A stretch of 64,000 bases of DNA from a virus. Its lineage: Duplodnaviria > Heunggongvirae > Uroviricota > Caudoviricetes. The stretch lies in the IMG/VR virus record IMGVR_UViG_3300046656_000613, positions 30,167-94,166 of that record; one strand, written 5' to 3'. The position numbers and the translations under genes are program-made. Shown here piece by piece: positions 46,714 to 62,766 of the stretch; position 1 is the first letter of the stretch, and each line of letters opens with the position of its first letter. The notes beneath the pieces were generated by a model. It made no database searches and was not told the origin of the DNA. It was given only the letters and a program-made list of their open reading frames with translations.

Positions 46714-46718
46714 GTCAT

Positions 46719-46931: not shown

Positions 46932-46936
46932 CTCTC

Positions 46937-47013
46937 GCGCGGGTGGGCAAACGGTAAAGTCGCTGCCTTGAGGTGGCAGAGCACTGCGGGTTCGAATCCC
47001 GCTCCGCGCACCA
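46937..47013 (+). tRNA. tRNA with anticodon GAG (Leu-type) but a short variable arm
   Basis: Anticodon stem CTGCC/GGCAG with loop TTGAGGT (U33, G37); T-arm GCGGGTTCGAATCCCGC; 77 nt. Confidence 0.5.
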
Positions 47014-47017
47014 ATAC

Positions 47018-47094
47018 GGACCCGTCGCCAAGTGGTTTACGGCACCTGACTCTTAATCAGGCATGCGCTGGTTCGAATCCAGCCGGGTCTACCA
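47018..47094 (+). tRNA. tRNA-Lys (CTT)
   Basis: Anticodon stem CCTGA/TCAGG with loop CTCTTAA. Confidence 0.8.
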
Positions 47095-47101
47095 TTCTTA
47101 C

Positions 47102-47190
47102 GGGCTCTTTTCCCTTCGGCGGGCTGTAAACCCGTTGGCTATGAAATAGAGGGGTCGGTGCCGAGCAGTTCAAATCTGCGGGAGCCCACC
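47102..47190 (+). tRNA. tRNA-Tyr (GTA)-like, type II length, aberrant D-arm
   Basis: Anticodon loop CTGTAAA identical to bacterial tRNA-Tyr; acceptor GGGCTCT/GGAGCCC pairs; 89 nt; D-arm cannot be folded confidently. Confidence 0.4.
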
Positions 47191-47219
47191 ATTCACGGAA
47201 ACCAAAGGCGAGAACTAAC

Positions 47220-48161
47220 ATGAGACAAATCTCTGACGGCGGCCCGAGCGGACAAGGCAGCAGCCTGATGCTCGGCGGCTGGCTGACCATCGGCGCGGTG
47301 GTGGTCAGCATCCTGATCGCATTCTGGAGCTATTACACCGTGGACGCCGGCCATGTGGCGGTGATCAAGCGCTTCGGCGCGGTGCAAGAGGGCTATTACG
47401 GCCCCGGCCTGCATTTCAAGAACCCGCTGCTCGACAGCGTGGTCCACGTCAACACTCAGCTCAGCAGCGTCGAGGCCAAGGCCGGCGCCGCCTCCAAGGA
47501 CATGCAGGTTGTCACCACCGAGGTGAGCGTGCCTTATTACCTGCAAGACCCGCAGGTGCCGACGATGATCAATGCGCTCGGCTCGCGCGAGGTGCTGGCC
47601 AAGAGCGTCCTGGCGACCGCCATTCAGGAGTCCGTCAAGAGCGCCACGGCCGGCTATACGGCCGAGGAGCTGCTCACCCGGCGCAATGAGGTGAAAGCCA
47701 AGATCGTCTCCGGCATCGTCGCCTACGTCAACGACACCCTGCGCGCCAAGAAAATCGAAGGGCTGGTCGGCATCGCCAATGTCGGCATCACCGACTTCGA
47801 CTTCTCCCCCGACTTCAACAAGGCCATCGAACAGAAGGTCCGCATGCAGCAGGACGCTCTGCGCGCCGAGATCGAGAAGACCAAGCGCATCACCGAGGCC
47901 GAGGCGAAATTTGCCGAAGCGAAGCTGAGTGCCGACGGCGAAGCCTACAAGACCAAGACCGAGGCGGAAGCCCGGATCTTCGCGATCGAGGGCGAGGGCA
48001 AGGCGATCCGCGAGAACCCCGGCATCGTGCCGCTGCGTATCGCCGAACGCTGGGATGGCACTCTGCCGAAATATAACAGCTCGACACTGCCCATGTTCAT
48101 GATGCAGGCTGAGCCCGAGACCGCCACACCGACGTCGCCGACGCGCGCGGCCACCCGGTAG
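47220..48161 (+). CDS. SPFH/band-7 (prohibitin/HflK-like) membrane protein
   Basis: N-terminal TM then GHVAVIKRFGAV...GLHFKNPLLDSVVHVNTQ... SPFH core and a coiled-coil C-terminus; embedded in the tRNA array. Confidence 0.8.
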   Translation: MRQISDGGPSGQGSSLMLGGWLTIGAVVVSILIAFWSYYTVDAGHVAVIKRFGAVQEGYYGPGLHFKNPLLDSVVHVNTQLSSVEAKAGAASKDMQVVTTEVSVPYYLQDPQVPTMINALGSREVLAKSVLATAIQESVKSATAGYTAEELLTRRNEVKAKIVSGIVAYVNDTLRAKKIEGLVGIANVGITDFDFSPDFNKAIEQKVRMQQDALRAEIEKTKRITEAEAKFAEAKLSADGEAYKTKTEAEARIFAIEGEGKAIRENPGIVPLRIAERWDGTLPKYNSSTLPMFMMQAEPETATPTSPTRAATR

Positions 48162-48168
48162 CAAGACT

Positions 48169-48243
48169 GGTTCTGTAGCTCAGCGGTAGAGCGTGCGCCA
48201 TATAAGCGCTTGGTCCCAGGTTCGATCCCTGGCAGAACTACCA
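48169..48243 (+). tRNA. tRNA with anticodon loop CATATAA (Ile- or Met-like, unresolved)
   Basis: Acceptor GGTTCTG/CAGAACT; T-arm CCAGGTTCGATCCCTGG; coordinates adjusted +1 to match the ORF track. Confidence 0.5.
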
Positions 48244-48246
48244 GAC

Positions 48247-48322
48247 GGTCCCGTAGCTCAATGGACAGAGCGCCGGCTTCCGAAGCCGAAGGTTGCAGGT
48301 TCGAGTCCTGCCGGGATCGCCA
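48247..48322 (+). tRNA. tRNA-Arg (CCG)
   Basis: Anticodon loop TTCCGAA; T-arm GCAGGTTCGAGTCCTGC. Confidence 0.7.
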
Positions 48323-48339
48323 TCAATCAGGAGAGACGC

Positions 48340-48549
48340 ATGACCACGCAGCGCGTGCGGGGCAAGACGGAACGCAGTTGGACATGGCGCGTCTTCAAGC
48401 GCTATGCGCTTCTGGACAATTCCAGGATCTTCTTTGCGATTGTTGCCCGGTTTCCGCCCCGGCGCGATCTGTGGTGCTGGCTCCATCGTTGGCCGGAGGG
48501 CATCGACATCAGGGTGTGGCCGGTCGATTTATTTATTAAGCGCGCCTAG
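48340..48549 (+). CDS. small hypothetical protein (69 aa) inside the tRNA array
   Basis: ATG after SD CAGGAGAG; Trp/Arg-rich. Confidence 0.3.
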   Translation: MTTQRVRGKTERSWTWRVFKRYALLDNSRIFFAIVARFPPRRDLWCWLHRWPEGIDIRVWPVDLFIKRA

Positions 48550-48615
48550 CCCAACGGGAGAGGCAACACCGTTAAGCCGTGTAAAGTGTCAGTTCGAATC
48601 TGACGGCGCGTACCA
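48540..48615 (+). tRNA. tRNA with anticodon TAA (Leu-type) but class-I length
   Basis: Acceptor GCGCGCC/GGCGCGT; anticodon loop GTTAAGC; T-arm GTCAGTTCGAATCTGAC; 76 nt. Confidence 0.45.
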
Positions 48616-48619
48616 AATA

Positions 48620-48696
48620 AGGTGTGGGAGCCAGACGGCAGCGGCGCTTGGTTGCAACCCAAGAGATAGCCGGTTCAATTCCGGCCCACACTTCCA
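48620..48696 (+). tRNA. tRNA-Cys (GCA)
   Basis: Perfect anticodon stem CTTGG/CCAAG with loop TTGCAAC. Confidence 0.75.
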
Positions 48697-48788
48697 AAAT
48701 CGCAGTTAGAGGGTCGCGCCCTGTCGGGTTTCTGGGCGGTTCTGGCAAGCAATCCTCTATGCAAAGCTGGCTCGGGGCGCTGCGATAC

Positions 48789-48825
48789 GCTCTTGACACG
48801 TTTCGCTATGCAATATATGGTTCTG
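48789..48825 (+). promoter_or_regulatory. sigma70-like promoter (CTTGACA, 16-17 nt, TATATG) inside the tRNA array
   Basis: Good -35/-10 with canonical spacing, upstream of tRNA-Asp. Confidence 0.4.
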
Positions 48826-48948
48826 TTGTCCCCGGCTCGCATGGGCGCGGTGCACCGGATTTGCGTAGCCCTAGCCTTGTGCCTACAATATGGCCGTAAA
48901 CATGATAAGCCGGCTGAGGAAGCATAGTAAACCGGGGGCACCCCTTAT

Positions 48949-49023
48949 GGTCTGTTAGCTCAGTGGTAGAGCGCCGGCTTGTCACGTCGTAGGTCGCGGG
49001 TTCAATTCCCGCACAGATCGCCA
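48949..49023 (+). tRNA. tRNA-Asp (GTC)
   Basis: Anticodon loop TTGTCAC; T-arm GCGGGTTCAATTCCCGC. Confidence 0.8.
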
Positions 49024-49025
49024 AT

Positions 49026-49102
49026 GGTCCCGTAGCTCAGTTGGTAGAGCGCCCGTTTTACATGCGGAAGGTCGCAGGTTCAAATCCGTGCCGGGACTAC
49101 CA
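49026..49102 (+). tRNA. tRNA-Val (TAC), bulged T-stem
   Basis: Anticodon loop TTTACAT; acceptor GGTCCCG/CGGGACT. Confidence 0.6.
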
Positions 49103-49107
49103 TTTTC

Positions 49108-49182
49108 GCCCTTGTAGCTCATCGGCAGAGCACGTCATTGGTGATGACGGGGCAGCAGGTTCAATTCCTGCCTGGGGCACCA
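49108..49182 (+). tRNA. tRNA-Thr (GGT)
   Basis: Perfect anticodon stem CGTCA/TGACG with loop TTGGTGA. Confidence 0.7.
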
Positions 49183-49198
49183 TTATAGGAGTGGAGTT

Positions 49199-49471
49199 AT
49201 GGCAGCGGCAGCGGTCACATGTAGAGCATTTCTTGAAGCCAGACCGGGCATCAGCGTCATTGATCTCGCAACCGAGGCTGTTGCCGATCACATCGAGAAG
49301 AACGGCTGCGCCTTTGAGGACAACGCCCCGGCTCGCGCCGTTGAGCTGCTCGGAATCGACCCACACAGCGTGGCGACGGCGCTTCCGCCCGAGATTTTGA
49401 AGCGCCTTGAAGATGCGCTGGAAGACATGGAGACATATTGTCCCCACCGGACGCTTGGCCAAGTGGCTTAA
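49199..49471 (+). CDS. small hypothetical protein (90 aa) whose 3' end overlaps tRNA-Lys
   Basis: SD AGGAGTGGAG before the ATG; overlaps the next tRNA by about 23 nt. Confidence 0.3.
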   Translation: MAAAAVTCRAFLEARPGISVIDLATEAVADHIEKNGCAFEDNAPARAVELLGIDPHSVATALPPEILKRLEDALEDMETYCPHRTLGQVA

Positions 49472-49525
49472 GGCACCCGACTTTTAATCGGAAGATCCTG
49501 GGTTCGAATCCCAGAGCGTCCACCA
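49449..49525 (+). tRNA. tRNA-Lys (TTT)
   Basis: Perfect acceptor GGACGCT/AGCGTCC; anticodon loop CTTTTAA. Confidence 0.75.
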
Positions 49526-49526
49526 T

Positions 49527-49600
49527 GGTCTCGTAGCTCAACGGTAGAGCATCCGACCGATAATCGGCCGACCGTGGTTCAACTCCACGCGAGACTACCA
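49527..49600 (+). tRNA. tRNA-Ile (GAT)
   Basis: Anticodon loop CCGATAA; T-arm CGTGGTTCAACTCCACG. Confidence 0.65.
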
Positions 49601-49602
49601 TC

Positions 49603-49679
49603 GGCCCCGTAGTTCAATGGAATAGAACGCCCGTCTTCTAAGCGGGATGTTGCGGGTTCGACTCCTGCCGGGGCCACCA
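49603..49679 (+). tRNA. tRNA-Arg (TCT)
   Basis: Perfect acceptor GGCCCCG/CGGGGCC; anticodon loop CTTCTAA. Confidence 0.8.
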
Positions 49680-49689
49680 ATAAGCGGTT

Positions 49690-49742
49690 AGTGGGGGATG
49701 AGCAGCGCAACTTGATGCTCCACTGTAACAAGATCCCCCACT
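49690..49742. terminator. large hairpin (AGTGGGGGAT...ATCCCCCACT) between convergent transcription units
   Basis: 10-bp GC-rich stem with an inner stem; lies between the end of the tRNA array and the stop of the giant minus-strand gene. Confidence 0.4.
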
Positions 49743-49768
49743 AGGTAAGGCGAGGGCGCGCGCCGCTC

Positions 49769-52700
49769 CTATTCCCCGATCACCGGACCATACAGATCGC
49801 TGACGTCGGCATCCTTGCGCTGGCTATTGATGCGCTCGCGCACCTTGCCCCAGACCTTGGCGAGGTGCTTGCCGTCCTGGACCTTCTCCTTCTTCATCCG
49901 GCGCAGCATCTCATCATAGACTTCCGGGGCGCCGGCTTTGAGCACCTTCAGCCGGGCGTCCACATCCATCAGCTTCTGCTGGCCCCAGCCGTCGATCCCC
50001 ATGATCTGGAGGGCGTTCTGGGCCATGCCCTTGCGAATGTGCGCAATCTCATTGCGGGCAAAGCGCATCTGCTCGCGGTCCATCTTCTTGCGCGCCTCGC
50101 CCTTCTCGTCCTTGTCCTGGATCAGCTCGCCGGTGACGATCTCCTTCATGATCGCGTTGGTGATCTTGACGGATTCGCTGGCGTTGATCATCGGATGCAG
50201 ATTGCGATATTTGCCCTTGGTGCGGCCCTTGAAGTCATTCTCCAGCACCGCGAAGGCGCGCTGATCCGGGTTAATCTGGCCGAGGAATTCCGAGGCCCGA
50301 ATGCTGTTCTCACCGCCCGAGTCGATCATCTTTTTGTAGGTGTTCGAGGCCGAGTGGAATGAGCGCGCGTCCTCGCTGACCGTATCCCAGAACCACTTGT
50401 TCAGCCCCTCGCCGTCGGTCATCATATTGTAGAACTTCGACAGCGAGTTCGAGGTTTTGCCTGCATTGTAAGTGAACCGGCGCGCCACCGGGTATTCTGC
50501 GATCGACGGCATCGGCCCCTCGCCAAGCGCCGCATCCAGGCCAGACGCTGCGTCCTGGCCCACCGAGGTGGTCAGATTGCGGATCAGGAAGTCCGCATAA
50601 TACGGCGACATGTTGAGCGCTTCGCCGATCTGCTTGGCCGCCCATGAGGTGTACGGGCCGAACTGCTGCTGACGCTCAACCTCCTCGGGGCCTTTCTCCC
50701 AGATCGGCACGATGTCGTTGCCGGAATACATATCCTTTCCTGACGCGAAACCATAAACCAGATCCAGCGCCGAGATCGAATGCGGCGGCAGCAGCGTGGT
50801 GAAGAAGTCGCTGACCATGCCGGCCGCCGCGCGCGGATCGTGATCGACCAGATAGTCCCAGCTCCGCTCGACCGCATTGGCGAACCATGCGATTTCGAAG
50901 GGCTTGGGAATGCGCATCATCCAATCGGTCTTCTCATCCTCGCCGGCCAGGAAGACGCGCATGTCTTTGGGCAGCAGGTACAGCACGCCATTGAGCGACA
51001 GCCGCCAATGGGTGGCGCGCACGCTGTCCGGCACCTCCTTCATGTCGTCATCGTCGGCACCCAGCATGCAGAACAGCAGCGACAGGCCGCCGAGCACGAC
51101 GGTGGAGATCATCCACGCCTTGCCGGCCTGCCCGAGCGCGCGCTGCTCATTGACCGACAGCGGCAGGCCACGGCTGTGCCGATCCCAGATCTGGATCAGG
51201 TTGCCGTAGTCATTGGCGCCGGTCATGGTCTTGGCATATTTGTAGACACCCTGGAGCGCGGCATTGAAGAACGGGATGACGCGCCGGAAGGCTTCGGTTT
51301 TTGAGCCGTGCTGGCTGAAGTCCATCACGTCATGAGCGTAGTGCCCGGCCTCGATCGCCGCCTCGAACTCGGTCATGCCGTCGGCCTGGGCAGATAGCAT
51401 GGCGTTGCGGAAGATGCCAACGCGGGTGGCGGTCTCAGAGAATTCGCCAACCTGGAACACCAGCTTGACCAGATCCTTGATGCTACGCGGCACCCGCACA
51501 TTGAAGCCGCGCAAGCGCAGCCCCTCGATGTCGCGCTGGATCGACTGATCCGTGAGCGAGGCGTGGCCGGCGCCACCCATCATGCCGGCGTAGCGGTTAT
51601 ACAGATGCAGATAGGGTCCGCCGCGGACGATCTCGCGCATGCCGCGCGCCTGGGTGAGAAATGGCCGAGCATAGGGCGAGTTCACCCAGGACGCGATCGA
51701 GTCGGTGATGATGTTGCGGATCATGAAGCCGAACGAGAAGGTCACGCCGGTGCGCACCACGCTGGTGGTGATGGCCATGGCGTCCATAAGCTGACCCATA
51801 TTGCGCTGGCCGACGGCAGTCAGACCCTCGAACATCATCTGCCCGAGCGTGCCATCGGGGAGCTGCGCCGGGATCGGCTTGCCGTTCTCGAAGAACCAGA
51901 CGATCTTCTCGCCCTTCTCATTGGCCTGCGCCTGGGTGAACATGGTCGTGACCACGTTCTGGCCGATCTGGGTCTCGACATTGGCGAGCATGATCGCAGT
52001 GTCCTGCGCCGTCATGCCGGCCGCGCGCGCCGCCTGCCGGAGCTGCTCGCGAATCCGCACTTCGACCGCCCGTGCCTCGGTGGGCGGCAGCCGCTCGAAG
52101 ATCTCGTTGCCCGCCTGCCCGGCCTGCCGGGCGATGCGATCCATAGCGCGCAGCGTGTCATTGATCGCGGCGCGCAGCCGGATCTCGAACATGGTCTGCA
52201 CTGTGGACTGGATCGGGTTGATGATATCGCGCATCGAGCCTTCGAGCTGGCGATAGACATCATACTTATTGATCTTGTCGCGCCCACGTCCCGGCCGCTT
52301 CGAGGTGGCATCCGTGCCATCCACCGTCTCGCGATCGGACATGTTGCGCTGGAACGGACAGTAATCCCGGTCCTGCTGGTACTCATTGCGCTCATCGAGG
52401 GTGATCAGACCCTTCTCGTACATCAGCTCGATGATGTCTTTGTTGAAGCGATAATACAGCTCGGCCGCCTGCCGGAACTGCGGGTTCTGTTGCTCATGGC
52501 GCAGCAGCCGATTGAGGTGCTCATACAGCGCCTCGGCGGTCGGTGGATTGGCCAGATCCGAGACGGTGTTGGTCGGCAGCCGCTGGAGCAGGAATGCCAT
52601 CTGCGGGTTGGCGGCCACGAACTGCTGGATCTGCACACGGAACTGCGGCCGATAGCGGACATAGAGCAGGATCGCGCGCCGGCTGATCAGATAGTCGCCG

Positions 52701-55700
52701 AACGCGCGCGCCCGCGCCTCATTCCAACTGCGCCGATTGGTGTTGCCGAAGGCTGTCGCCAGCACCTGATGCATCGATACGCCGCCGACGCCATTGGGCC
52801 GCGAGCGCAGCGCAACCCCCTCCTTGAGATCCTGCATCGCCCATGCCTGGGTGTGCGAGGTCATCTTCAGCAGCTTGTTGGGATTGTCGGCCGCCGCCAG
52901 GGTGACGCGCTGGCCGGTGACGCGATTGATTTCTTCGAGCAGCGCCCGCGTCGCCATCCACCAGCCATGGCGCTTGTCGAAGACGTTCATGACGAAGCCA
53001 TGATGCAGATCATACAGCCGATCGGCCATGGTCGAGACGAAGCCGTCGCGCTCGGCGTCTTGCAGGAAGCGCCGGGCGGCATTCGGGGTGCGGGTGAGCA
53101 TGGTCTGCTGCGCGGCGCCGCGATCGAGCGGGTCGCCAAGCAGGAAATTGTCGTACTCATCCTGGATGTCCTGCATCGCCCAGAACAGCCGCGGGTCTTC
53201 CGCCTCGACCAGATTCTCAAAGGTGCGATAGAAATTCGGCGCCTGCTGGCGCGCCGCGGTCTCGTTGGTCAGATAGCGGCGGAAGAATTCGGCAAAGCCC
53301 TCCGACAGATTGGTGTTGCCCTGGCCGGCGACCACGCCGGCCAGCGGCGACAGCTCGTGCGAGAACGCCACCATGGCCGCGCGCAGTCGGGCGCCCAGCG
53401 TGCGCTCCAGATGATGGCCCGCCTCATGGGCGAAGGTGTCGAAGTCGATCTGCACGCGCAGGCGAGCGCGACCATTATACTGGCCGTTGACTTGCCCGCC
53501 GCCCGCCGCGGTCGCCTGCCGCTGGAGCGCCGGGTCGATGCGCCCGGTCGCCACCGACAACCCGGCCGCGCGGCGGAAGTCCGCCATCAGCTCAGAGAGC
53601 GCCTTGAGAGGCCGCTGGCGGGGCAGGAAGCGCTGCACGACGTTCTGGGCCATGCTGCGCGGCGCTGCCGTCTGCCGTGCCCTGGTGGCGCCTGGGGCCG
53701 TGGCGATGCCGCGCGCGTCGGCGAGCACGCCCGCGCGGATCATCGCCTGGGTGTTCACCTTCTCAGTGCGGCCATAGATCTCCTCATAACGACGCTTCAG
53801 CTCGCCCTGATCGACCTTCTGGAAAATATCCTCCCATGTCTGGGAGCCATTGCCCTTGATGCCGTTGACCAAGCGGGCCATGAAGTCGCTCAGTCGCTTG
53901 AAGGCAATCCGCACGATCCCCTTGGGGGCATACTGGTCGGCACGATAGCGGCCGAACATCTCCATGATCGATTCCTTGAGGATCAGATCCTGGAGTTGTC
54001 GCGGCCCCATGGTTTTGCCATAGCGCTTGGTGTAGGCGCGGGCGACGCCGGTCTTGCGAACCCAGCCCTCTTTCTGCGCGGCGGCCTGGAGTGCCGACCA
54101 TTCGGCTGCGGTGATCATGTCGTGCGCCAGGAAGAACTCCAGCGCCTCATGCCGCACCGTGGTCTTGGTGATCTCGGCCATGGACTGGCCGGTGGCGCGG
54201 GCCTTCTCCTCGATGGCCTTGGCGCCGATCGAGATCATCTCCGCGCGTGGGTCGGTCTGGCCGAGTGCGCGAACAATGGCGTTGTCGATATTTTCATTGC
54301 TGTCGTCGAGGGAGAACAGCTCGTCGAGCACTTCCTGCTGCTCGCCGGCCTCCATCGGCTCACCGTTTTTATGGGTGATCCTGACGGAGCTGTCGTCGAA
54401 CACCACAATGTTGCGCGTGCCGTCGGCCTGCTTCACATCGGCGGCCTGGACTTCCAGGATCTGGTCGAGCGTAGCCTGGGCGTCGCGGAGCCGTTCGGCG
54501 GTCAGCCGCTGATGGTTCGGCGGGACGAATGGCGAGAAGTCTTCCGACTCCTTGTCGCCGCGGCGCATCTCGAAATTGAGCTTTTCGACATGCTCGCGGT
54601 ATTTCTGCTCGGTCTCGTCGAGCGAGCCGTCAAGCTTCTGCTGCGCCCAGCCCCAGAGCTGGTCGGGGACAGGCTTGCCGTTCAGGCTGATGGTGCGCGA
54701 CGACGCATCGAGATAACGCAGGCCGGGGACGCCGGCCGCGTGAAGCGCTGCCGAAGCCTCTTGATCTGTGTAGAAACGGCGCCTCAGCTCATCGATAACA
54801 TGGCGTCCGTCGCGATAATCGACGGCATCAAACCCAAGCGCTTTCAGTTTTTCTTGGACGCCCGCAGGCTGCTTGCTCAGCGGCTTATCCCAATCCAGGA
54901 GCTGCTCAGGCTCAAGATCGATCTCGACCTGATAGAGCATGCCCTTGTCGATCTCGGGCTGTGGGAAGCGAATCTGCTTGCCGTACAGCCCCTTGAGCCA
55001 CTCGATGGCTTCCTTTGCCGCCTTGCGCTCATCCAGGCTCAGAGTTTCGCCGAAGGAATCCATCCCGGCGTCCAAATCAACCTGGATAATTGCGGTATAT
55101 TCCTGGATCATCCCCAACGGGATGACGCCGCCCGCCTTGGGAAGATCATCCTTAAGCTGACTGCCCAGCCAATGGATCATATCATTGCCGGTGATGTCCG
55201 TTTCCTGATCATCGATAAACATGATGTCAGGCACAACGGTCTGCTGCCGAGCGGCGCCTGATAGCGCCTCGCGATAATAGTCGGCGATGCCCTTATTCTC
55301 AGCAAAATACAGGCCATACCCATAAGCCTGCGCGCCCTCGCCGGTGCCGATCGCATCCATGCTGAAGCGGTCAAAGCGGTGCGGCGTGCCGTGGAACGCC
55401 GTCAGCGAGAACATATTCGGGGTCTCGGCGCGGGCCTCAACGGGCATCTTCGACCACAGCTTGATCAGCTCACCGCGTTCCTTGCGCGCGTTGGTCAGAT
55501 CGAATGCCTTGTTCTCATCGTCCGGTCGCGCCGCGATTGCTCGCAGCTCTTTGCCAATAAAATCAAGGTTGTCCTTGATCCGTCGCGGCGAAATATAATA
55601 CCCCTCAAACTCGGACCACTGATGCCATTTCACGCTCTCGGGTGAGCGCTTTTTCCACATGGCATAGCCTTCTTCCGACAGAATGCCGGAAGGCGACATC

Positions 55701-58700
55701 TTGATGCCCAGGTCTTTCTCGATCGCGGCGTACAACTTGCCGGACATGCCGCGCGGAGCTGTGCCGCTTCGTGCGGTGCGCTCCACCATGGAGACTTCCC
55801 AGGTGCCGTCCAGGTGCTGAGAGACGCGCGCCCAGATCAACGGCCGGTGGACCGTTGTCCCCGACTGGAACATGGGCGCGAAGTTCTTGATATTTTTGAG
55901 AGTGGCTGCGTCAATCTCGGCGGACTCGTCATACATCCGATAGGTGAGCGTCGTCAGCCGGTACTCGGATGGGCGGGCATTGCGCTCCCGCAGTCGGTCA
56001 TGATCGGCGGCGCGGCCGGCGCTGACTACGCCCTTAAATCCATCGATATCGAACAGCTCAAAGCTATCGACCTTCTGGATCTCTCCTGCATTCGATGCGC
56101 GAGCATCAGCAGATCGGCTCGCTGAGGAGATTCGGCCGGCAATGATTGAGCCGTCGTCTCGTAATGTTGCGCTCTCCTGGCGTAGTATGCGGCCTTCACC
56201 TGTTGCGCCGCCAACAGCCGCGCCGCCTCCGCGAGTTGCCGCAGTGCCTGCCGGCGTTCCACGCTCGGATGCACCATCGCCTTCTTGTCCAGCGCCTCGG
56301 CTATCGCCCGATAATTCATCGCTCGCCTCCGTTTCTGACATAATATCAGAGCGCGATGAACGCAATGCAAACAGCTCATCCTCGCGGGCGAGCCGGCCGA
56401 TCTCGATATTGGCCTTGACGTCCACGCGCACGCTGGCCGGCAGGATGCCGTCGGCCGCCTCATCGGCGACGCGCTGGAGCGCTTCGGCTTTGCTCTCGGC
56501 CTGAGGGGTGAGCATCACCTCTTCATTGGCGACGCGGCCCGGCGCGATGAACGCGGCTGTGCCGCGAGCGCCGGCCGTCAGCACGGCGGCTTTGCGACGA
56601 CTGTCGGCGATATTGGTGATCCGCGCATTGATTAAGGCGATGATCTTGGGGCGCGATGAGCCCTCGCTTTTCTTGACGGTACGACCGACCAGCTTGCTGG
56701 CGACCTTTTGCACATCAGCTAGCGGCAATCTGCCAAGTCCAGCCACGATCATCGTCGCGCGCGCATGCCAATTGTCCACGGCCTTGATGACGGGCGCGCC
56801 ATTCTTATCCAGCGGCATGGCTTCGTCGAGCAGTGCATCGAACTCAGCCGAAATACCCTTGACGTCCTTGACCTGATCCACTGGCGCCCGGCGCACCACG
56901 CCGCGCTTGTCGTAAGCGAGAATGCCGGCCTGGACCGCCTCGGTGACGGCGATATGCATCTGATGTGGCTGAAGCCCAAGCGATGCCGCCCACTGATCGC
57001 GCGGCATCTTGGAGTTGGCGAGCCTGATGATCTCCTGCATGAGATCACGCTCGGGCGCGGGCTCGGCTTCGGCCGTCGGCACCTCCGCTTTCGCGGGCGC
57101 CGGTGCTTTCCCGGCCTTCTCGGTAGCCTTCTGCGCCGCGCGCTCGATCGCGGCCTTCTCGCCGCCGATGGTGAAGCGCTTCTTGAAGCTGTCGTAATCT
57201 TCGGTCTGCCGGGTGTCGCCATGCTTCTCGGCGACCGCATTCTCCGCGACCAGCGGGTAGTTGTCATCCAGACGGTAGGCGCGAGCGTATTCCTCGACGC
57301 TGACGCCCTCTTTTTTCAGGTGCCTGCGCAGATCGGTATGCTTGCTGCCGTCGATCAGCGAGGCGATGTATTCGGGCTGGACGGACTGCTGCACCGGCAC
57401 GGCGGGGTCGCCGCCCAGCTTGGTGTCTGCGCGCTCGCCGCCTGCCAGCGCTGGAGTAGCGCCCGCAGGATTGGTCTGGGCGTCGCGGATCGCCTTGAAA
57501 TAGCTGGCCTTGGTGCCCTTCTTCGGCGCCTTGCCGATGAAGTCGGTGGCGATCAGATAAGCGTCGTCTTTCAGGATCTTACGATCCCGCTCCAGCTCGC
57601 CCATGGCCAGCTCAAACGCGGCGGGATCGCCGGCCATTCCCTTCAGCCGGACGCCCATATTGCGCACCAGCTCGGGCGGCTCATCACCGGCACGGCGCGC
57701 GGGCTCGCGCGGCACACGCGGGCGCCGGGTCGGGAGCCCTTCCAGCATTTTATCGAAGGCGACCAGCAGATCGGGCTGCTGCTGTGCGATCAGCTCGCGG
57801 ATGCGGCCGACCAGCTCGGGATTAGGACCGTAGGCCGCGACCATCGCCTGGACGGCCTCGACGTTTATATTGCGCGCAACGATCTCTTCGATGACGTTGA
57901 GGGGATCTTCGCCCTTGCGCACCGCCTCGATCACCTCGATGCGCTCATCGGGGGCGAGCTTGCGGTAAACTTGGCTCAGCGTCGGATCGCCGGTCTCTTC
58001 CTCGAACACCTCGATTGCCGGCAGCACAAACTGCTTCTCGGCCCAATCGAGCTGCTTCTGCGGATCGCTGCTGTCCAGCGACGCCTCGAAATCGCGATCC
58101 TCCTGCTGTTCGGCCAGCGGCACGATGCGCTCGCCGGCTACGGCGCGCTGGATGAGGTCGAGCACGTCATCGCTATTGCTCAGCGACGCCTGATCCGGGC
58201 CGCTCTCTTCGAGATAGCCGGCCTCCACCAGGGCCTCGCGCACCTCCTCCAGGCTCTTGCCGTTCTCGTTGACCAGACCGGGGAAGCGCTGGCCGTCGAT
58301 GGTGTCCAGCTCACCGATCGGCTGCACACCGCCGATCGACTGGATGAACTTAAGCGCGCCCTGCCCCTTGGTCGCCTCGGCCGGATTGGGCGTGGGATCG
58401 ACGGACGGATCTTCCATTGGCGGCTGGATGCCGGGCTCCTCGGAGGCATCCACCGGCGCGAGCGGTGCCTCGGGCTCGCTGCCCTCTGCGGCCGGGCCGG
58501 CACCAGGGATCTCAGCGGCCTTCTTGGCGTCACGCACATCGCGATAGGCTTCAACGCTGGAGCCGGGCAACGCCATGCCGCCCGCGCCGATAATGGTGCG
58601 CAACGCAATCTCAGGCGCGGTCTCGGTGGCAAATTTCTGCACGTCGCTGCCGGTGATGCCCTTGCCGGCCATCGCCTTCGAGCCCAGCTCAGTCAGCCCT

Positions 58701-59668
58701 TCCTGGGCCAGCTCAGTCGGCAGCTCCACCAGGATGGTGTCCTTGACCAGCGACTTGCCGAACTGCTTGGTGAACTCGGCCGCGGTGCGCATCTTGCCGC
58801 CCTGCGCAAGGTTCTGCGCCAGCTTCTGCGCCACCCGGTCGGCGAGCTGCTTGCGCGCGAAGCCGCCGATCTTGGCCGCTTGCAGCGCAGGGAATGCGGC
58901 ATCCAGGCTGACCAGAATGGCCGCGCCCATATTGGTGTAGTTGACCAGATTTTGGTCGGATACGCCCTCTTTTTTCAGGGCGTTGCGCATGTCGCTGGTG
59001 TGAAGGTGGATCGAGCCCAGCGCCGAGCCGGTCAGTGCGCCGACGGTGCCGCCGACCATGGCGCCGGTCTTGCCGCCCGCGATCTGTCCCTGGGTGGCGC
59101 CGATGCCGCCGAGCGCTGCCGCGCCGACGATCGAGGGCGCCATCACGCCGACCTGCTGGCCGACGGTCTCCTTCACATATCCCCAGAAATCGCGGATGCC
59201 GCCGATCTGCTGGTAGCTCTGATAGACCGGCCGGTAGCTGGAGCCGTCCTGCTTGAGGCTGGCGCGGACGGATTCCGCCTTGCGCGACCACCATTTATCC
59301 CCGGTCCAATCGGACAGATGATCCATGGTGTCAGCGAAGGCTTCGATATTCTGGTTGCCCAGCGCATGCTCCATCGAACCCCAGAAGGACGCCTCCTCCG
59401 GGGTCTCCATGCGCGGGTTCATCTTCTCGGCCTGGGTGCGGGCGCGCGCGGATTCGCGGGCGTTGTCGATCGACACCCCGTCCATCAGATCGTCGCGCCA
59501 CGACCGGCCCGGCGTGGTCTTGGGCACGATGGTCTCGTTGGCGCCCGGCCGGGCCGGCGCCTGCCCGACTTCCTCATCGAAGAAGTTTTCCGGGGCCTTG
59601 ACATGCGTCGAGGCCGCTGATGGAGCAACGGCCTCGTCTTCGTACTGGTCAAAGAAATTTTCGGCCAT
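49769..59668 (-). CDS. giant virion-associated polyvalent protein (3299 aa) with ART-like and HExxH metallopeptidase-like motifs
   Basis: Single uninterrupted ORF; Gly-rich N-terminal region; H-Y-E ADP-ribosyltransferase-like triad context (FHGTPHRFDRF, GYGLYFAE); zincin motif FAHEAGHHLE; C-terminal hydrophobic helices; start couples to the upstream gene by ATGA overlap. Confidence 0.8.
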   Translation of the reverse strand: MAENFFDQYEDEAVAPSAASTHVKAPENFFDEEVGQAPARPGANETIVPKTTPGRSWRDDLMDGVSIDNARESARARTQAEKMNPRMETPEEASFWGSMEHALGNQNIEAFADTMDHLSDWTGDKWWSRKAESVRASLKQDGSSYRPVYQSYQQIGGIRDFWGYVKETVGQQVGVMAPSIVGAAALGGIGATQGQIAGGKTGAMVGGTVGALTGSALGSIHLHTSDMRNALKKEGVSDQNLVNYTNMGAAILVSLDAAFPALQAAKIGGFARKQLADRVAQKLAQNLAQGGKMRTAAEFTKQFGKSLVKDTILVELPTELAQEGLTELGSKAMAGKGITGSDVQKFATETAPEIALRTIIGAGGMALPGSSVEAYRDVRDAKKAAEIPGAGPAAEGSEPEAPLAPVDASEEPGIQPPMEDPSVDPTPNPAEATKGQGALKFIQSIGGVQPIGELDTIDGQRFPGLVNENGKSLEEVREALVEAGYLEESGPDQASLSNSDDVLDLIQRAVAGERIVPLAEQQEDRDFEASLDSSDPQKQLDWAEKQFVLPAIEVFEEETGDPTLSQVYRKLAPDERIEVIEAVRKGEDPLNVIEEIVARNINVEAVQAMVAAYGPNPELVGRIRELIAQQQPDLLVAFDKMLEGLPTRRPRVPREPARRAGDEPPELVRNMGVRLKGMAGDPAAFELAMGELERDRKILKDDAYLIATDFIGKAPKKGTKASYFKAIRDAQTNPAGATPALAGGERADTKLGGDPAVPVQQSVQPEYIASLIDGSKHTDLRRHLKKEGVSVEEYARAYRLDDNYPLVAENAVAEKHGDTRQTEDYDSFKKRFTIGGEKAAIERAAQKATEKAGKAPAPAKAEVPTAEAEPAPERDLMQEIIRLANSKMPRDQWAASLGLQPHQMHIAVTEAVQAGILAYDKRGVVRRAPVDQVKDVKGISAEFDALLDEAMPLDKNGAPVIKAVDNWHARATMIVAGLGRLPLADVQKVASKLVGRTVKKSEGSSRPKIIALINARITNIADSRRKAAVLTAGARGTAAFIAPGRVANEEVMLTPQAESKAEALQRVADEAADGILPASVRVDVKANIEIGRLAREDELFALRSSRSDIMSETEASDELSGDSRGAGQEGDGASERGTPAGTAATRGGGAAVGGATGEGRILRQESATLRDDGSIIAGRISSASRSADARASNAGEIQKVDSFELFDIDGFKGVVSAGRAADHDRLRERNARPSEYRLTTLTYRMYDESAEIDAATLKNIKNFAPMFQSGTTVHRPLIWARVSQHLDGTWEVSMVERTARSGTAPRGMSGKLYAAIEKDLGIKMSPSGILSEEGYAMWKKRSPESVKWHQWSEFEGYYISPRRIKDNLDFIGKELRAIAARPDDENKAFDLTNARKERGELIKLWSKMPVEARAETPNMFSLTAFHGTPHRFDRFSMDAIGTGEGAQAYGYGLYFAENKGIADYYREALSGAARQQTVVPDIMFIDDQETDITGNDMIHWLGSQLKDDLPKAGGVIPLGMIQEYTAIIQVDLDAGMDSFGETLSLDERKAAKEAIEWLKGLYGKQIRFPQPEIDKGMLYQVEIDLEPEQLLDWDKPLSKQPAGVQEKLKALGFDAVDYRDGRHVIDELRRRFYTDQEASAALHAAGVPGLRYLDASSRTISLNGKPVPDQLWGWAQQKLDGSLDETEQKYREHVEKLNFEMRRGDKESEDFSPFVPPNHQRLTAERLRDAQATLDQILEVQAADVKQADGTRNIVVFDDSSVRITHKNGEPMEAGEQQEVLDELFSLDDSNENIDNAIVRALGQTDPRAEMISIGAKAIEEKARATGQSMAEITKTTVRHEALEFFLAHDMITAAEWSALQAAAQKEGWVRKTGVARAYTKRYGKTMGPRQLQDLILKESIMEMFGRYRADQYAPKGIVRIAFKRLSDFMARLVNGIKGNGSQTWEDIFQKVDQGELKRRYEEIYGRTEKVNTQAMIRAGVLADARGIATAPGATRARQTAAPRSMAQNVVQRFLPRQRPLKALSELMADFRRAAGLSVATGRIDPALQRQATAAGGGQVNGQYNGRARLRVQIDFDTFAHEAGHHLERTLGARLRAAMVAFSHELSPLAGVVAGQGNTNLSEGFAEFFRRYLTNETAARQQAPNFYRTFENLVEAEDPRLFWAMQDIQDEYDNFLLGDPLDRGAAQQTMLTRTPNAARRFLQDAERDGFVSTMADRLYDLHHGFVMNVFDKRHGWWMATRALLEEINRVTGQRVTLAAADNPNKLLKMTSHTQAWAMQDLKEGVALRSRPNGVGGVSMHQVLATAFGNTNRRSWNEARARAFGDYLISRRAILLYVRYRPQFRVQIQQFVAANPQMAFLLQRLPTNTVSDLANPPTAEALYEHLNRLLRHEQQNPQFRQAAELYYRFNKDIIELMYEKGLITLDERNEYQQDRDYCPFQRNMSDRETVDGTDATSKRPGRGRDKINKYDVYRQLEGSMRDIINPIQSTVQTMFEIRLRAAINDTLRAMDRIARQAGQAGNEIFERLPPTEARAVEVRIREQLRQAARAAGMTAQDTAIMLANVETQIGQNVVTTMFTQAQANEKGEKIVWFFENGKPIPAQLPDGTLGQMMFEGLTAVGQRNMGQLMDAMAITTSVVRTGVTFSFGFMIRNIITDSIASWVNSPYARPFLTQARGMREIVRGGPYLHLYNRYAGMMGGAGHASLTDQSIQRDIEGLRLRGFNVRVPRSIKDLVKLVFQVGEFSETATRVGIFRNAMLSAQADGMTEFEAAIEAGHYAHDVMDFSQHGSKTEAFRRVIPFFNAALQGVYKYAKTMTGANDYGNLIQIWDRHSRGLPLSVNEQRALGQAGKAWMISTVVLGGLSLLFCMLGADDDDMKEVPDSVRATHWRLSLNGVLYLLPKDMRVFLAGEDEKTDWMMRIPKPFEIAWFANAVERSWDYLVDHDPRAAAGMVSDFFTTLLPPHSISALDLVYGFASGKDMYSGNDIVPIWEKGPEEVERQQQFGPYTSWAAKQIGEALNMSPYYADFLIRNLTTSVGQDAASGLDAALGEGPMPSIAEYPVARRFTYNAGKTSNSLSKFYNMMTDGEGLNKWFWDTVSEDARSFHSASNTYKKMIDSGGENSIRASEFLGQINPDQRAFAVLENDFKGRTKGKYRNLHPMINASESVKITNAIMKEIVTGELIQDKDEKGEARKKMDREQMRFARNEIAHIRKGMAQNALQIMGIDGWGQQKLMDVDARLKVLKAGAPEVYDEMLRRMKKEKVQDGKHLAKVWGKVRERINSQRKDADVSDLYGPVIGE

Positions 59669-59670: not shown

Positions 59671-62331
59671 TTACCTTGGCTCGGCAAGAATCTCCTCAGC
59701 GGAACCTTGCCCATATTTCTGATTGAATTCTGACGCCAACGCAGGGTTGCCCTTGAGGGCACTGATCGCAGTCTGGGAAGGTTTGGGCATACCGTAATAG
59801 GCATTCGGGTCGCCCTGCATGGGGATCGCAGGGGCATCGTCACCGAGACGATTGCCGAATGACTGGAAAGCGCGCTCTGCGGCGCCGCTTTCATTCAGGT
59901 AGCGGATACGATTTGCTATCACGCCTGAGACGGGAAGTCCATCAAGACTTCTTTTGATCTGTGAATGAACTGCTTCGGCGAGTTCTCTATTCTGCACCAT
60001 GTGTTCGACTGCCGCAACCCCCGCCGCGCGCGCATAGGGGCCGTATTGCTGCTCCATGCCGGCGAGCACGCCGCTCATGGCGTCGGTCAGCGACTTGCCT
60101 TCGAGCCCGCGGATCGGCGCCATGATCACCCGCGCCTCGCTCTTGGTGATCGGCGAGCGCCGGTCCTCGGGCACGCCGACCTTGCCCTGCGCCTCGATGC
60201 GCACGCGCGACAGCTCCTGGATCGCGGCCGGATCACCGGGATTGGCATTGGCCAGCTCGGCGGCGGCCTTGACGTCCGGCAGCATGTCCACTGAGCGGGC
60301 CGGGTCGGTATCGCGCCATTCGATCAGATCGTCAGCCATCTTCTTGGCCTTGTCATAGACCTTGGCCTTCATCTCGAAATTGGCTTCGCCCGGCTTGGGC
60401 GCGATGCTGGCCAGCCGGCCATAGACCTGATCGGTCGGCATGGTCGGCAGATCGCTGAGCGCGTCGTGTTCGAGCTGCGCCTCCTGGCGCTGAAGGAAAT
60501 AGCGGTTGATCTGGTTCGGCTCCAGCACACGCCGGGCCATCTCCAGATCCGGGGCGGAGGCTTGGCCGGTGCGACGGATCGACTCCACATCGTCGTCGAG
60601 CGACTGCTTGAGCTGCTCGCGATGCGCCTCGAACTTGGTGCGGTGGGCGCGCTCGGCCTCATTGAGAAATTTGGCGCGCTCCAGCGGCGAGAGCATCGCA
60701 TATTTGCCCTCGGCCTGCTGGGTGCCCTCTTCACCCATCGCCATGGCCATGGAATAGCGGCCATACAGGCGGGTGTTGTGACCCTTGGCGGAGTAGACGC
60801 CGCTCGCGAGTGCCGACGGGAAATCGTCTTTCAGCTTGCCGCGATCGGCCTCGGTCATCCGCGCCAGGAAGTCGCGCACATCCTTGGCGCCGCTGGCCGC
60901 GCCCGCGACGCGCTCGGCGTGGTTGGCGATCGAGGCTGGACCCTGCTGAATCTTCCGGTCCGCAAAATAGGCGATGACACGGGGATCGCTGGCCAGTTCG
61001 GTCGGCACCCCCGCGGTTTCGAGGTCGCTCTGCGTTGGCGCCAGAATGTTCTTTTGGTGCCAGTCCTTCTCGGCGGCGATGAGCCCCTGCGGATCGGCGC
61101 GGGACACTGCCTCCCAGGACGAGTCGAACTCAGCGGTCCCCGGCTTGCCCTTCAGCCCGAGCGCCGAGCCATATTCGCGCATGAACTGCTGTGCCGAGCC
61201 GCCCTCCTGGCTGTTGAGGCCGAGATTGCCGTAGGACTTGGTGCCCTTGCTGTCCTTGGAGATGTTCTTGACGCCCTCGACCGGATTGGTCTTGCCGGTT
61301 TCCAGGCGCCCGGTGATGTCTTGGGGGCTCGCGCCCTTGTAGGTTTTGAACGCCTTGCCCTGGCGCTCGGACAGATTCTTCGCCCAGGTGGTGGCGTTCT
61401 CGCGGCTGTCGAATTTGCCCAGATGCTGGCCGGTGCCGAGATAGCGCTCGATCGACTCTTCCTCGGTCATCTCCTTGCCGTTCTCGTCGATCGTCGGAAT
61501 CAGGACTTCGCGCCCGTCTTCCTCGATTGAGATCGACTTGATGGTGGAGATGCTGCCGTCCTCGTTGCGCACCACGGGCCGCTTGTCGAGTTCGATGTTG
61601 CCCGGCTCCAGCTCGCCCACCGGCGCAGTCGCGCCGAGCAGCTCGCGGCGCAGCCCCTCGGGGTCATCGAGCTTGCGACGCTCGGCCTCCTGGAGCACGG
61701 CGCCCTTGACGTATTGCTCATCGAGCTTGGCCTGCTGCGCGGGCGACAGCATGCCGGCCCGCTGGCCAAGCTGGATCGAGGTGCGCATCTGATCGATGAT
61801 GCGGCCCCGCTCGGTGTCCGGCGTGCGCGGGTCGCTATAGTCGTCGCGGTACTTCTCCAGCGTCGATTCGAGCTGGACGAAGCGCTCCTGCCGGCCGTAT
61901 TCGTCGGCGCGCTTCATCAGCCGCTCGCGCCCGGCGAGCACGTCATTGCCGGCCTTGAGCTGCCATTTCTGGCGCATATCCGGGTTGCGGATCAGTCCGG
62001 CCGCCTGTGTATTGATCTCCTGGGCGACGGGAGTGTAGCGCTGATCGTGGGTCGAATAGTCGCCATCATTGTCCAGCGCGCGCTCGGCATCGAACAGCCC
62101 CTGGCGCTGCGCGGCGTCGGCCTTGATCAGATCGAGCGCGTCCTGTTCGCGCTTGGCCTTCTCCTGGCCGCGGTTGAGGGCGTCGATGCCCTGCTCGGCG
62201 CCGCGACCAAGCGACGCCAGCCCCCGGCCGACCGCAGAGGCATCGACATCCGAAGCTGAGACGATGCCGCGGCCCGAGCGCAGCGATTCCGCGCCGCCCT
62301 GGAGCTGGCTTTTATCAGGCATTTTTGGCAT
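59671..62331 (-). CDS. large virion internal/ejection-like protein (886 aa)
   Basis: Size and position in a small, medium, giant gene series analogous to podovirus internal virion proteins; Ala/Gln-rich coiled segments. Confidence 0.45.
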   Translation of the reverse strand: MPKMPDKSQLQGGAESLRSGRGIVSASDVDASAVGRGLASLGRGAEQGIDALNRGQEKAKREQDALDLIKADAAQRQGLFDAERALDNDGDYSTHDQRYTPVAQEINTQAAGLIRNPDMRQKWQLKAGNDVLAGRERLMKRADEYGRQERFVQLESTLEKYRDDYSDPRTPDTERGRIIDQMRTSIQLGQRAGMLSPAQQAKLDEQYVKGAVLQEAERRKLDDPEGLRRELLGATAPVGELEPGNIELDKRPVVRNEDGSISTIKSISIEEDGREVLIPTIDENGKEMTEEESIERYLGTGQHLGKFDSRENATTWAKNLSERQGKAFKTYKGASPQDITGRLETGKTNPVEGVKNISKDSKGTKSYGNLGLNSQEGGSAQQFMREYGSALGLKGKPGTAEFDSSWEAVSRADPQGLIAAEKDWHQKNILAPTQSDLETAGVPTELASDPRVIAYFADRKIQQGPASIANHAERVAGAASGAKDVRDFLARMTEADRGKLKDDFPSALASGVYSAKGHNTRLYGRYSMAMAMGEEGTQQAEGKYAMLSPLERAKFLNEAERAHRTKFEAHREQLKQSLDDDVESIRRTGQASAPDLEMARRVLEPNQINRYFLQRQEAQLEHDALSDLPTMPTDQVYGRLASIAPKPGEANFEMKAKVYDKAKKMADDLIEWRDTDPARSVDMLPDVKAAAELANANPGDPAAIQELSRVRIEAQGKVGVPEDRRSPITKSEARVIMAPIRGLEGKSLTDAMSGVLAGMEQQYGPYARAAGVAAVEHMVQNRELAEAVHSQIKRSLDGLPVSGVIANRIRYLNESGAAERAFQSFGNRLGDDAPAIPMQGDPNAYYGMPKPSQTAISALKGNPALASEFNQKYGQGSAEEILAEPR

Positions 62332-62337: not shown

Positions 62338-62766
62338 TTATCCGTAAGCGCCGCCGCCAGGGGCGGGAGCTGGAGCACCAAAGGCTTTGCCGACGCCGCT
62401 GAGGAACTGGCCGCCCGCTTCGAGCAGCGAGCCCTTATAAGCGGCCTTGCCCTTGAAGCGCGCTGCGTTGGCCTGGGAGAGCTGACCGCGCGCGCGACTC
62501 TCGCCGCCATAGAGCGCGGTCTGAGCGTTGTATTCGCCGGTCTGTGCGGTCTCGCCATAGATGTCGAGGATCGAGGGGTTGACCACACCGGCGCCGCCCG
62601 ACGCCGCCAGGGCGACCTGCCGGGACATCAGCCGCTCGGCATCGCCGCGCTTGGTGATGGCGTCGCGCTGCGAGGCGGCACGCTCCTCTGCGGCCACGCG
62701 CTCGCGTTCATTGGCCTCATAATTGAGGGCGGCTTGCTGGGCGCGCCCCTGCTGGAGCGTGCCCAT
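62338..62766 (-). CDS. small virion internal protein-like (start uncertain)
   Basis: Ala/Gly-rich protein with an N-terminal hydrophobic segment; start chosen at the Met that gives a TGATG coupling with the GNAT gene. Confidence 0.4.
   Translation of the reverse strand: MGTLQQGRAQQAALNYEANERERVAAEERAASQRDAITKRGDAERLMSRQVALAASGGAGVVNPSILDIYGETAQTGEYNAQTALYGGESRARGQLSQANAARFKGKAAYKGSLLEAGGQFLSGVGKAFGAPAPAPGGGAYG

Follow-up and report, generated by a model that had tools for sequence, protein, structure and literature searches.

The class of polyvalent proteins was described in 2017 by Iyer, Burroughs, Anand, de Souza and Aravind, and in that survey LPD38 is reported from phage-type members of the class alone and the MPTase is proposed to autoprocess the polyprotein (PMC5512222). 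Among the LPD38 proteins is gp47 of the Stx phage phi24B (2811 amino acids (aa); LPD5/LPD1/LPD38/MuF-C), which was abundant in virions by proteomics, was invisible by cryo-electron microscopy and has been proposed to be an ejection protein (bioRxiv 10.64898/2026.04.10.717836). The same survey treats T4 Alt, an ART, and P1 DarB, a methyltransferase-helicase, as enzymes that are delivered with the phage DNA and act before phage genes are expressed (PMC5512222), and in cyanophage A4 enzymatic domains are found in the pre-ejectosome proteins, which also hold DNA (PMC12002296). Here we report on a giant open reading frame (ORF) of 3299 codons in a stretch of 64,000 nucleotides (nt), called the window below, which is positions 30,167 to 94,166 of the IMG/VR record IMGVR_UViG_3300046656_000613 of a virus of the Caudoviricetes. 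Our conclusion is that this ORF, which lies in an ejection operon, very likely codes for a true polyvalent protein of the phage type and the LPD38 class, for which we propose a mechanism of packaging and injection.

The giant protein has several unrelated enzymatic domains in one polypeptide (an ART, a zincin like that of anthrax lethal factor, a Ros/MucR domain and LPD38), it carries a class-specific LPD domain, namely LPD38, and its gene lies in a phage context beside virion genes. The original prediction, which was made from the letters of the DNA, had recognized in it the hallmarks of polyvalent toxin or anti-defence proteins, and the LPD38 domain, the ART fold, the zincin and the virion-gene context bear this out. 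LPD38 (PF18857) was found at aa 2873-3061 (nt 50486-51052) with an expectation (E) value of 3.5e-23 and 83-88 bits against a cut-off of 27, and the match covers the full length of the profile. At the start of LPD38 there is a strongly hydrophobic helix, aa 2853-2871, with an acidic patch that extends to aa 2878 (nt 51035-51112), and both are retained in distant homologues. When the C-terminal region, aa 2181-3299, was searched with HMMER over 1.84 billion cluster representatives, 4296 matches were obtained at E <= 1e-3, and 434 were left when the limit was E <= 1e-30. In all the matches listed the similarity runs to the C-terminus of the protein, the proteins being 780-5644 aa long, and the N-terminal partners of this chassis are methyltransferase + helicase + SLT, RelA/SpoT, GGDEF, ParB-like and ART domains. 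The unit formed by the zincin and the C-terminal module, which together make up the C-terminal 1260 aa, was found by an alignment-based scan in 80 IMG/VR loci, most of which are contigs of 35-48 kb; a scan of viral contigs with the single sequence gave none. The unit was also found by tblastn in cultured podoviruses, namely, vB_ValP_FGH, BA3, Pelagibacter phages and PTXU04. An AlphaFold2 model of the C-terminal module is almost all helical and superposes over its full length of 1200 aa on models in BFVD that are named 'Large polyvalent protein associated domain-containing protein', with a TM of about 0.5. It had been predicted that the size and domain mix of the giant protein are unusual and that its functions are likely undescribed. 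The class itself is neither uncommon nor undescribed: it dates from 2017, and clustering at 50% identity gives over 4000 clusters with the C-terminal module.

The zincin had been foreseen from its HExxH motif, and this was confirmed. The motif FAHEAGHHLE is at aa 2079, and H2081, E2082, H2085 and the glutamates of 'SEGFAEFF' do not vary, either within the family or in homologues with an identity of only 30%. The helix with HExxH and the downstream helix with the glutamate are those by which the zincin MPTase of polyvalent proteins is recognized. A profile search of PDB with the zincin region matched the catalytic centre of anthrax lethal factor with an E value of 0.0019 and both motifs aligned. 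Among known structures, anthrax lethal factor, PPEP-3 and MtfA come nearest, all of them sequence-specific protein endopeptidases and none of them a cell-wall hydrolase. Directly upstream, the conserved domain at aa 1800-2040 has HEALE in the family, where distant homologues from other polyvalent proteins have HExxH…EEAIAE. From this sequence pattern, aa 1800-2040 may be a second zincin-like domain, degenerate or re-purposed, in tandem with the intact one; Pfam, the PDB sequence search and hhalign against the true zincin gave no support for a second zincin.

An ART-like constellation of histidine, tyrosine and glutamate had likewise been noticed in the motifs HGTPHRFDRF and YGYGLYFAE, which are present at aa 1426 and aa 1449, respectively. 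The core of the domain is aa 1423-1665, with H1426, Y1454, Y1465 and E1582, and the Pfam family ART-PolyVal (PF18760) matches aa 1423-1467 with an E value of 5.5e-5. We gathered 31 homologous ART domains from many polyvalent proteins in one alignment (A2). All 31 match ART-PolyVal, each just over profile positions 8-46, and H1426, Y1454 and Y1465 are invariant among them, while the position of the catalytic glutamate is acidic in 24 of the 31 and non-acidic in 7. An AlphaFold2 model made from this alignment had a pLDDT of 86. As in the H-Y-E clade, the histidine is on beta-1, a tyrosine is on beta-2, a second tyrosine follows 11 residues later and an acidic residue is on beta-5. Thus, the matches of the entire set, the model and the conserved residues together support the ART fold and its H-Y-E constellation, in a divergent ART-PolyVal subfamily with a large helical insert. 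The finding of this fold and of the metalloprotease fold like that of lethal factor is what the original prediction had made its test, and here it stood.

The Ros/MucR-type DNA-binding domain had not been part of that prediction's domain list. Its match scores 49-53 bits against a gathering threshold of 25.4 and extends over profile positions 44-112 of 123, and in a PDB sequence search with the whole giant protein Ros was the sole match. The N-terminal oligomerization part of MucR, which is needed for DNA bridging and silencing, is therefore missing. The domain is also without the Cys2His2 zinc site: in the alignment to Ros (2jsp_A) Ser and Asp take the place of both cysteines and the last histidine is gone, so that the sequence is SLID…RHLKKE compared to CLEC…RHLTTHH in Ros. 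The same situation exists in Ml4 and Ml5, which are zinc-free Ros/MucR proteins that still bind DNA (PMC9779718). MucR is a xenogeneic silencer of alphaproteobacteria (PMC9410896). Two members of the family (P0018 and P0019) do not have the domain. The Ros/MucR domain is not mentioned in the 2017 survey, where a text search for 'MucR' gave 0 occurrences (PMC5512222).

Full-length homologues of the giant protein numbered 18; they are 2936-4014 aa long, are 41-74% identical to it and come from independent contigs of 22-92 kb held by JGI, NCBI, Logan and ENA. In addition, a public collection holds an identical protein (P0001) from a 94,166-bp JGI contig. The gene is intact and syntenic in the three loci that were fetched (L001, L002 and L009). 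Gene context was taken from the relatives P0006 and P0007. In the resulting family of 19 members the conservation of the giant protein is unbroken except at aa 1423-1789, and additional hot spots of insertion and deletion follow aa 728/740, 850 and 1966. No DNA match to the ORF was found by megablast against 50,697 phage genomes, a scan of 185,579 reference genomes for a prophage gave no match, and there were zero matches of the protein to NCBIfam. When the N-terminal 640 aa were used for a homology search there were no matches, and the likely reason is that the list of candidates was swamped by low-complexity words. The giant protein stands for a new family, with about 19 metagenomic phages, within a known and very common class; it is a good new example of the class described in 2017 and not a new kind of system.

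The break in conservation is due to two slots in which the members of the family carry different cassettes. Slot 1 is empty in the giant protein but is filled in four members, in P0012 by LPD23 with an HExxH motif, in P0013 and P0018 by a canonical ART-PolyVal and in P0016 by a coiled coil. Slot 2 contains the ART described above, which we call type A, in six members, namely, the protein of the window and five others including P0009; another six have a type-B domain that is unrelated in sequence, three (P0004, P0005 and P0009) have a canonical ART-PolyVal that scores 66-90 bits, and in five the slot is empty (26-30 aa). P0009 holds both the type-A and the canonical cassette and is counted twice in this tally of the 19 members. 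The canonical cassette, which ends in …GNRGTFDPxDPRxS[FY][SA]L, occupies either slot 1 or slot 2, depending on the phage. Both slots start with the motif h-[FLY]-[SA]-L ('EDELFAL' and 'NMFSL'), and 15 of the 18 inserted cassettes, whatever their type, end in [FY][SA][LIMY]. The motif is kept at the level of the protein, and a recombination site at the junctions was rejected since conservation of the DNA is confined to the codons of the motif. Because the slots are empty or differently filled in sister phages, the ART is an exchangeable accessory module. The junction motif may serve for processing, as a linker or within a docking element. No description of a two-slot layout with a junction motif was found in the available part of the 2017 survey, and this layout and the Ros/MucR association are features apart from those found there (PMC5512222).

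The giant gene comes last in an operon for tail and ejection proteins, and its product is the largest; the phage is rich in tRNA genes and has about 94 kb. The genes on the minus strand are, in order, tail protein, 149-aa ORF, 164-aa protein, 886-aa protein and 3299-aa protein, and the last three are spaced 2-6 nt apart (Table 1). In L001 and L002 the homologue of the tail protein has 1157-1161 aa with Laminin_G_3, and a gene of 136/137 aa is the syntenic counterpart of the 149-aa ORF. A domain of about 100 aa in the 886-aa protein, aa 239-353, matches ejection proteins that are annotated as 'DNA transfer' and 'IVP-C-like' in podoviruses of the P22, epsilon15 and KP34 types; this protein also has a weak match to VgrG3-like_C. 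Over its C-terminal half it shows homology (E 1e-19) to an 837-aa protein of a 37-kb viral contig (L010) that is unrelated and distant, and there the gene for the 837-aa protein directly precedes a 1774-aa LPD38 gene. Since the same homologous pair is found in so distant a contig, the ejection-type gene and the LPD38 gene travel together. The original prediction had described a small gene, an 886-aa gene and a GNAT gene in front of a single 9.9-kb ORF, in an arrangement like that of podovirus ejection proteins. The coordinates of the ORF, which has an ATG start and the coding signal of a real gene, agree with our results, as does the ejection-like series, whose members match phrog_376, phrog_418 and DNA-transfer-type proteins. 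For the label GNAT, the 149-aa ORF has no Pfam match at E <= 0.1 and this identity was rejected as unsupported. A GNAT within the giant protein, at aa 1160-1415, was rejected as well, the 'RGMSGKLY…' motif having been seen by eye only and being unsupported by Pfam or by the PDB sequence search.

Table 1. Features of the giant ORF and of its operon, in positions of the window (aa numbers are those of the giant protein)
Feature	Position (nt)	Strand	Remarks
Large tail protein, C-terminal part	63215-64000	minus	phrog_376, E 1.7e-20; ORF leaves the window at its end
149-aa ORF (start MQIRD…)	62766-63215	minus	Overlaps both neighbours
164-aa internal virion protein, hydrophobic N-terminus	62338-62832	minus	phrog_418, E 1.5e-21
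886-aa ejection ('DNA transfer')-type protein, gp15 position	59671-62331	minus	aa 239-353 of this protein similar to podoviral proteins
Giant ORF, whole	49769-59668	minus	3299 aa; ATG start; stop codon 49769-49771; phage-type polyvalent protein, LPD38 class
aa 1-440, family-specific N-terminal region	58349-59668	minus	Kept at 50-68% in the family
aa 440-640, conserved domain, no function assigned	57749-58351	minus	Local phmmer; common to LPD38 proteins P0021, P0024, P0026 and P0046
aa 747-814, Ros/MucR-type DNA-binding domain	57227-57430	minus	Pfam PF05443, E 6e-13 / 5e-14
Slot 1 'EDELFAL', aa 1096-1102	56363-56383	minus	Empty in the giant protein
aa 1103-1417, family-specific conserved domain, no function assigned	55418-56362	minus	Alignment A5
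Slot 2, aa 1418-1790, type-A ART cassette	54299-55417	minus	Bounded by 'NMFSL' and 'ELFSL'
aa 1800-2040, conserved domain	53549-54271	minus	Alignment A6; H1840-E1841-x-x-E1844 and E1899
aa 2040-2180, lethal-factor-like gluzincin	53129-53551	minus	H2081, E2082, H2085; E2123/E2127 in 'SEGFAEFF'
aa 2181-3299, helical C-terminal 'chassis' module	49772-53128	minus	Pfam LPD38; phrog_9854
Terminator-like hairpin	49735-49756	minus	13 nt past the stop codon of the giant gene; consensus scan only

The regions aa 1-440, 440-640, 1103-1417 and 1800-2040 of the giant protein gave no Pfam or PDB-sequence match. For aa 1-440 there were only weak matches to phrog_15869 and to Romo1/C19orf12, which are glycine-zipper-like, and a hydrophobicity scan placed Gly-rich hydrophobic segments at aa 165-267 (nt 58868-59176). 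These segments and the helix at the start of LPD38 are the Gly-rich and C-terminal membrane-like segments that had been predicted.

The rest of the window has genes for replication, recombination, lysis and anti-repression and 29 tRNA genes. The tRNA genes are in 45955-49679 on the plus strand, 19150-20024 on the minus strand and 29004-29078 on the plus strand. Twenty-one of them form an array between the lysis genes and the stop codon of the giant ORF, convergent with the giant ORF, and this array is split by an SPFH/Band-7 gene (47220-48161). Several of the plus-strand ORFs listed for this region are tRNA DNA. In L001 and L002 the genes for a 160-aa protein and for a lysozyme come straight after the giant gene and, because of this, the tRNA array with the SPFH gene looks like a phage-specific insertion. 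In L002, downstream of the giant gene, the 160-aa and lysozyme genes are separated by an HNH/NUMOD4 homing-endonuclease gene (22056-22742); this insertion is absent in the window and in L001. In the window, 23897-30209 and 37827-40465 hold temperate-type and replication genes, for a primase-polymerase, a helicase, a DnaD/O-like initiator, the anti-repressor Ant, RecT and an exonuclease-like protein, and in relatives NinB and a LexA-like DNA-binding protein are found in addition. Among the ORFs scanned there was no integrase. The host is probably an alphaproteobacterium because of the Ros/MucR domain, the GC content of 61% and the source names of two partial relatives, Afifellaceae and Hyphomicrobiaceae.

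How does the giant protein compare with the described systems? It is alike to the LPD38 polyvalent proteins gp25 of the E. coli phage PTXU04 and the 2634-aa protein of the Vibrio phage vB_ValP_FGH in that unrelated enzymatic domains are combined with LPD domains, LPD38 is near the C-terminus and the gene ends the structural module. Homology to these two proteins extends over the C-terminal 1000-1200 aa (about 22% identity by tblastn and a BFVD TM of about 0.5), whereas the N-terminal 2000 aa of the giant protein are specific to the family of about 19 phages. By its description phi24B gp47, from a short-tailed phage, is likewise an LPD38 giant with a metallopeptidase, but it has neither the ART nor the Ros/MucR domain. 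Moreover, the MuF-C peptidase of gp47 has been suggested to digest peptidoglycan, unlike the zincin of the giant protein which resembles lethal factor, PPEP and MtfA. With T4 Alt and P1 DarB, injected enzymes from the phage head that modify the host or counter restriction, also compared by description, the giant protein shares the logic of delivery, although these two come from myoviruses with different packaging routes; a DarB-like methyltransferase and helicase are carried by the distant LPD38 proteins P0030-P0053. Against the A4 pre-ejectosome proteins gp26-gp29 (PDB 9k3a) the match is limited to the ART-like domain, and the C-terminal module matches no A4 protein. Chain B of 9k3a is probably gp28, judged by its length, and its alpha+beta domain was left without an assignment by the authors. 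In the T7 series gp14, gp15 and gp16 the order after the tail genes is the same, that is, a small membrane protein, a protein of about 850 aa and the largest protein, and a role as a DNA conduit is presumed for both series. No SLT domain of the T7 gp16 type was found in the giant protein with Pfam, and no structural match to gp16 was obtained.

Based on these comparisons the following mechanism is proposed. Observed are the domain identities, the position in the operon, a chassis that is ubiquitous and placed C-terminally, and the polymorphism of the cassettes; we infer the other steps. During assembly, the giant protein would enter the interior of the capsid together with the 164-aa and 886-aa internal proteins. 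The packaging agent would be the C-terminal 1260-aa chassis, that is, the zincin and the helical module of about 1100 aa with its hydrophobic helix and LPD38, and it is proposed for this part because it is the only one common to thousands of such proteins. Upon infection, the giant protein would be ejected before or along with the phage DNA, and the hydrophobic segments aa 165-267 and 2853-2871 could help to build or to cross a conduit through the envelope. The N-terminal 2000 aa would then be the cargo that is put into the host cell. There the Ros/MucR domain without zinc could hold the phage DNA or compete with the host silencer MucR, and the H-Y-E ART, drawing on the NAD+ of the host, would modify one of its proteins or nucleic acids in aid of take-over or counter-defence. 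The zincin would probably act in cis and process the polyprotein, with the h-[FY]-[SA]-L motifs at the slot borders as possible sites, or it could cut a host protein.

Several of our results weigh against this proposal or against parts of it. The presence in virions and the injection are argued by analogy, the phage being known only from metagenomic contigs, and the enzymatic activities of all the domains are predicted. The model of the C-terminal module is moderately confident (pLDDT 72), and beyond the zincin this module has no solved structural relative and resembles neither T7 gp15/gp16 nor the pre-ejectosome of A4; hence its role in packaging or in a conduit is drawn solely from its position and its ubiquity. 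The ART-PolyVal match of the ART scores 24.4 bits, which is below the gathering threshold of 31.2, and is confined to positions 8-46 of the 140 in the profile, its first third. The slot-2 cassette is missing in 5 of the 19 members of the family, so the ART must be dispensable for the core function. Cleavage at the junctions is a conjecture, and the 'FSL' upstream of the type-A cassette abuts strand beta-1 of the ART model, with its Leu being the first residue of that strand. An extended form of the proposal is that the injected polyprotein processes itself, with the junction motif as the site at which the in-cis endopeptidase cuts, so that interchangeable effectors are released in the host, and with the freed Ros/MucR domain, which lacks zinc and the oligomerization part, as an injected anti-silencer that keeps MucR off the phage DNA. 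The junction motif fits this in that it closes 15 of the 18 filled cassettes irrespective of their fold and marks the empty slots too, but in this full form the idea is speculative and we regard it as rather improbable.

Alternatively, the giant protein could be mainly a structural protein of the ejection apparatus, the conduit or the capsid core, in which the ART, the zincin and the MucR-like part are relics or spacers. The members without a cassette, the non-acidic third catalytic position in 7 of the 31 ART homologues, the loss of the second histidine in the zincin-like domain at aa 1800-2040 and the almost entirely helical C-terminal module, which is like that of known ejection proteins, would all fit such a protein. 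Relics, however, would not be expected to have the complete H-Y-Y-E and HExxH + Glu sets that are present here, with zincin ligands that are invariant even at 30% identity. Also, the slots hold three sequence-unrelated types of cassette and two more inserts, including ART-PolyVal domains above the Pfam cut-off, and such diversity is the pattern expected of effectors under diversifying selection and not of spacers. We therefore consider a mainly structural role unlikely. That the protein is instead a toxin or anti-defence protein which is expressed late, acts in the cytoplasm or is secreted and is not packaged, for example a polymorphic toxin of a prophage directed against competitors, is suggested by the ART and the protease like lethal factor, both typical toxin domains, and by the temperate-type genes Ant, RecT and NinB in relatives. 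This explanation is highly unlikely, since there is translational coupling between the giant gene and the ejection-protein genes, the gap to the 886-aa gene being 2 nt, and since the giant gene is followed by the terminator-like hairpin and the convergent tRNA array. Neither a signal peptide nor a small immunity-like gene downstream was noticed, though no search was aimed at either. Furthermore, LPD38 proteins end the structural module in unrelated podoviruses (for example, vB_ValP_FGH and PTXU04) and one of them has been confirmed in virions by proteomics.

The size class of the giant protein and the position of its gene, after a protein of about 150 aa and a virion protein of intermediate size, are also those of N4 gp50 (3500 aa), which is packaged and injected and whose C-terminal region is needed for encapsidation. 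In the 2017 survey N4 gp50 too is given an MPTase and a C-terminal encapsidation domain (PMC5512222), the MPTase-type zincin being a further likeness. It could be argued from this that the giant protein is a divergent virion RNA polymerase of the N4 or crAss type, but we consider this extremely improbable. The original prediction had seen no RNA polymerase motifs and we agree: BLASTP against N4 gp50 gave nothing under E 0.24, the hhalign probabilities against it were 2% with the zincin profile and 0.9% with the C-module profile, no RNA polymerase family was found in scans of Pfam, PHROGs and NCBIfam, and the region that could house a polymerase is occupied by identified domains of other kinds. 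Homology to N4 gp50 was rejected from the BLASTP and the two hhalign runs, and the resemblance is confined to position and role. N4 gp51 and gp52 showed no similarity to the 886-aa and 164-aa neighbours. Finally, the ORF could be an artefact of assembly or annotation in which several genes are fused, and it was such a joining of genes that the original prediction had set as its own refutation. The identical public protein, the 18 intact homologues from independent samples and sources and the intact syntenic gene calls exclude this, as do the conservation, unbroken outside the cassette, and the uniform coding signature; the GC content at the three codon positions of the ORF is 0.65, 0.44 and 0.81 in a genome of 61% GC, which is the pattern of a real gene. 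The probability that we leave to an artefact is negligible. A packaged and injected polyvalent protein thus remains the reading that we prefer.

The first weapons that a phage delivers are thought to be polyvalent proteins, and almost none of these has been studied experimentally. The family reported here is a natural allelic series in which one constant scaffold, a protein of 3000 aa, carries varied cassettes: a type-A ART, a canonical ART-PolyVal, a type-B domain, LPD23 with HExxH, or empty slots. This series makes it possible to test whether the cassettes have a role in host range or counter-defence, whether the zincin cuts in cis at the junction motif and what the function of the ubiquitous LPD38 chassis is. 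In view of the Ros/MucR domain, it is possible that alphaproteobacterial phages inject a competitor for the xenogeneic silencer of their host. The value of the family is in its clean series of cassettes, in the Ros/MucR association and in a chassis that is still unexplained.

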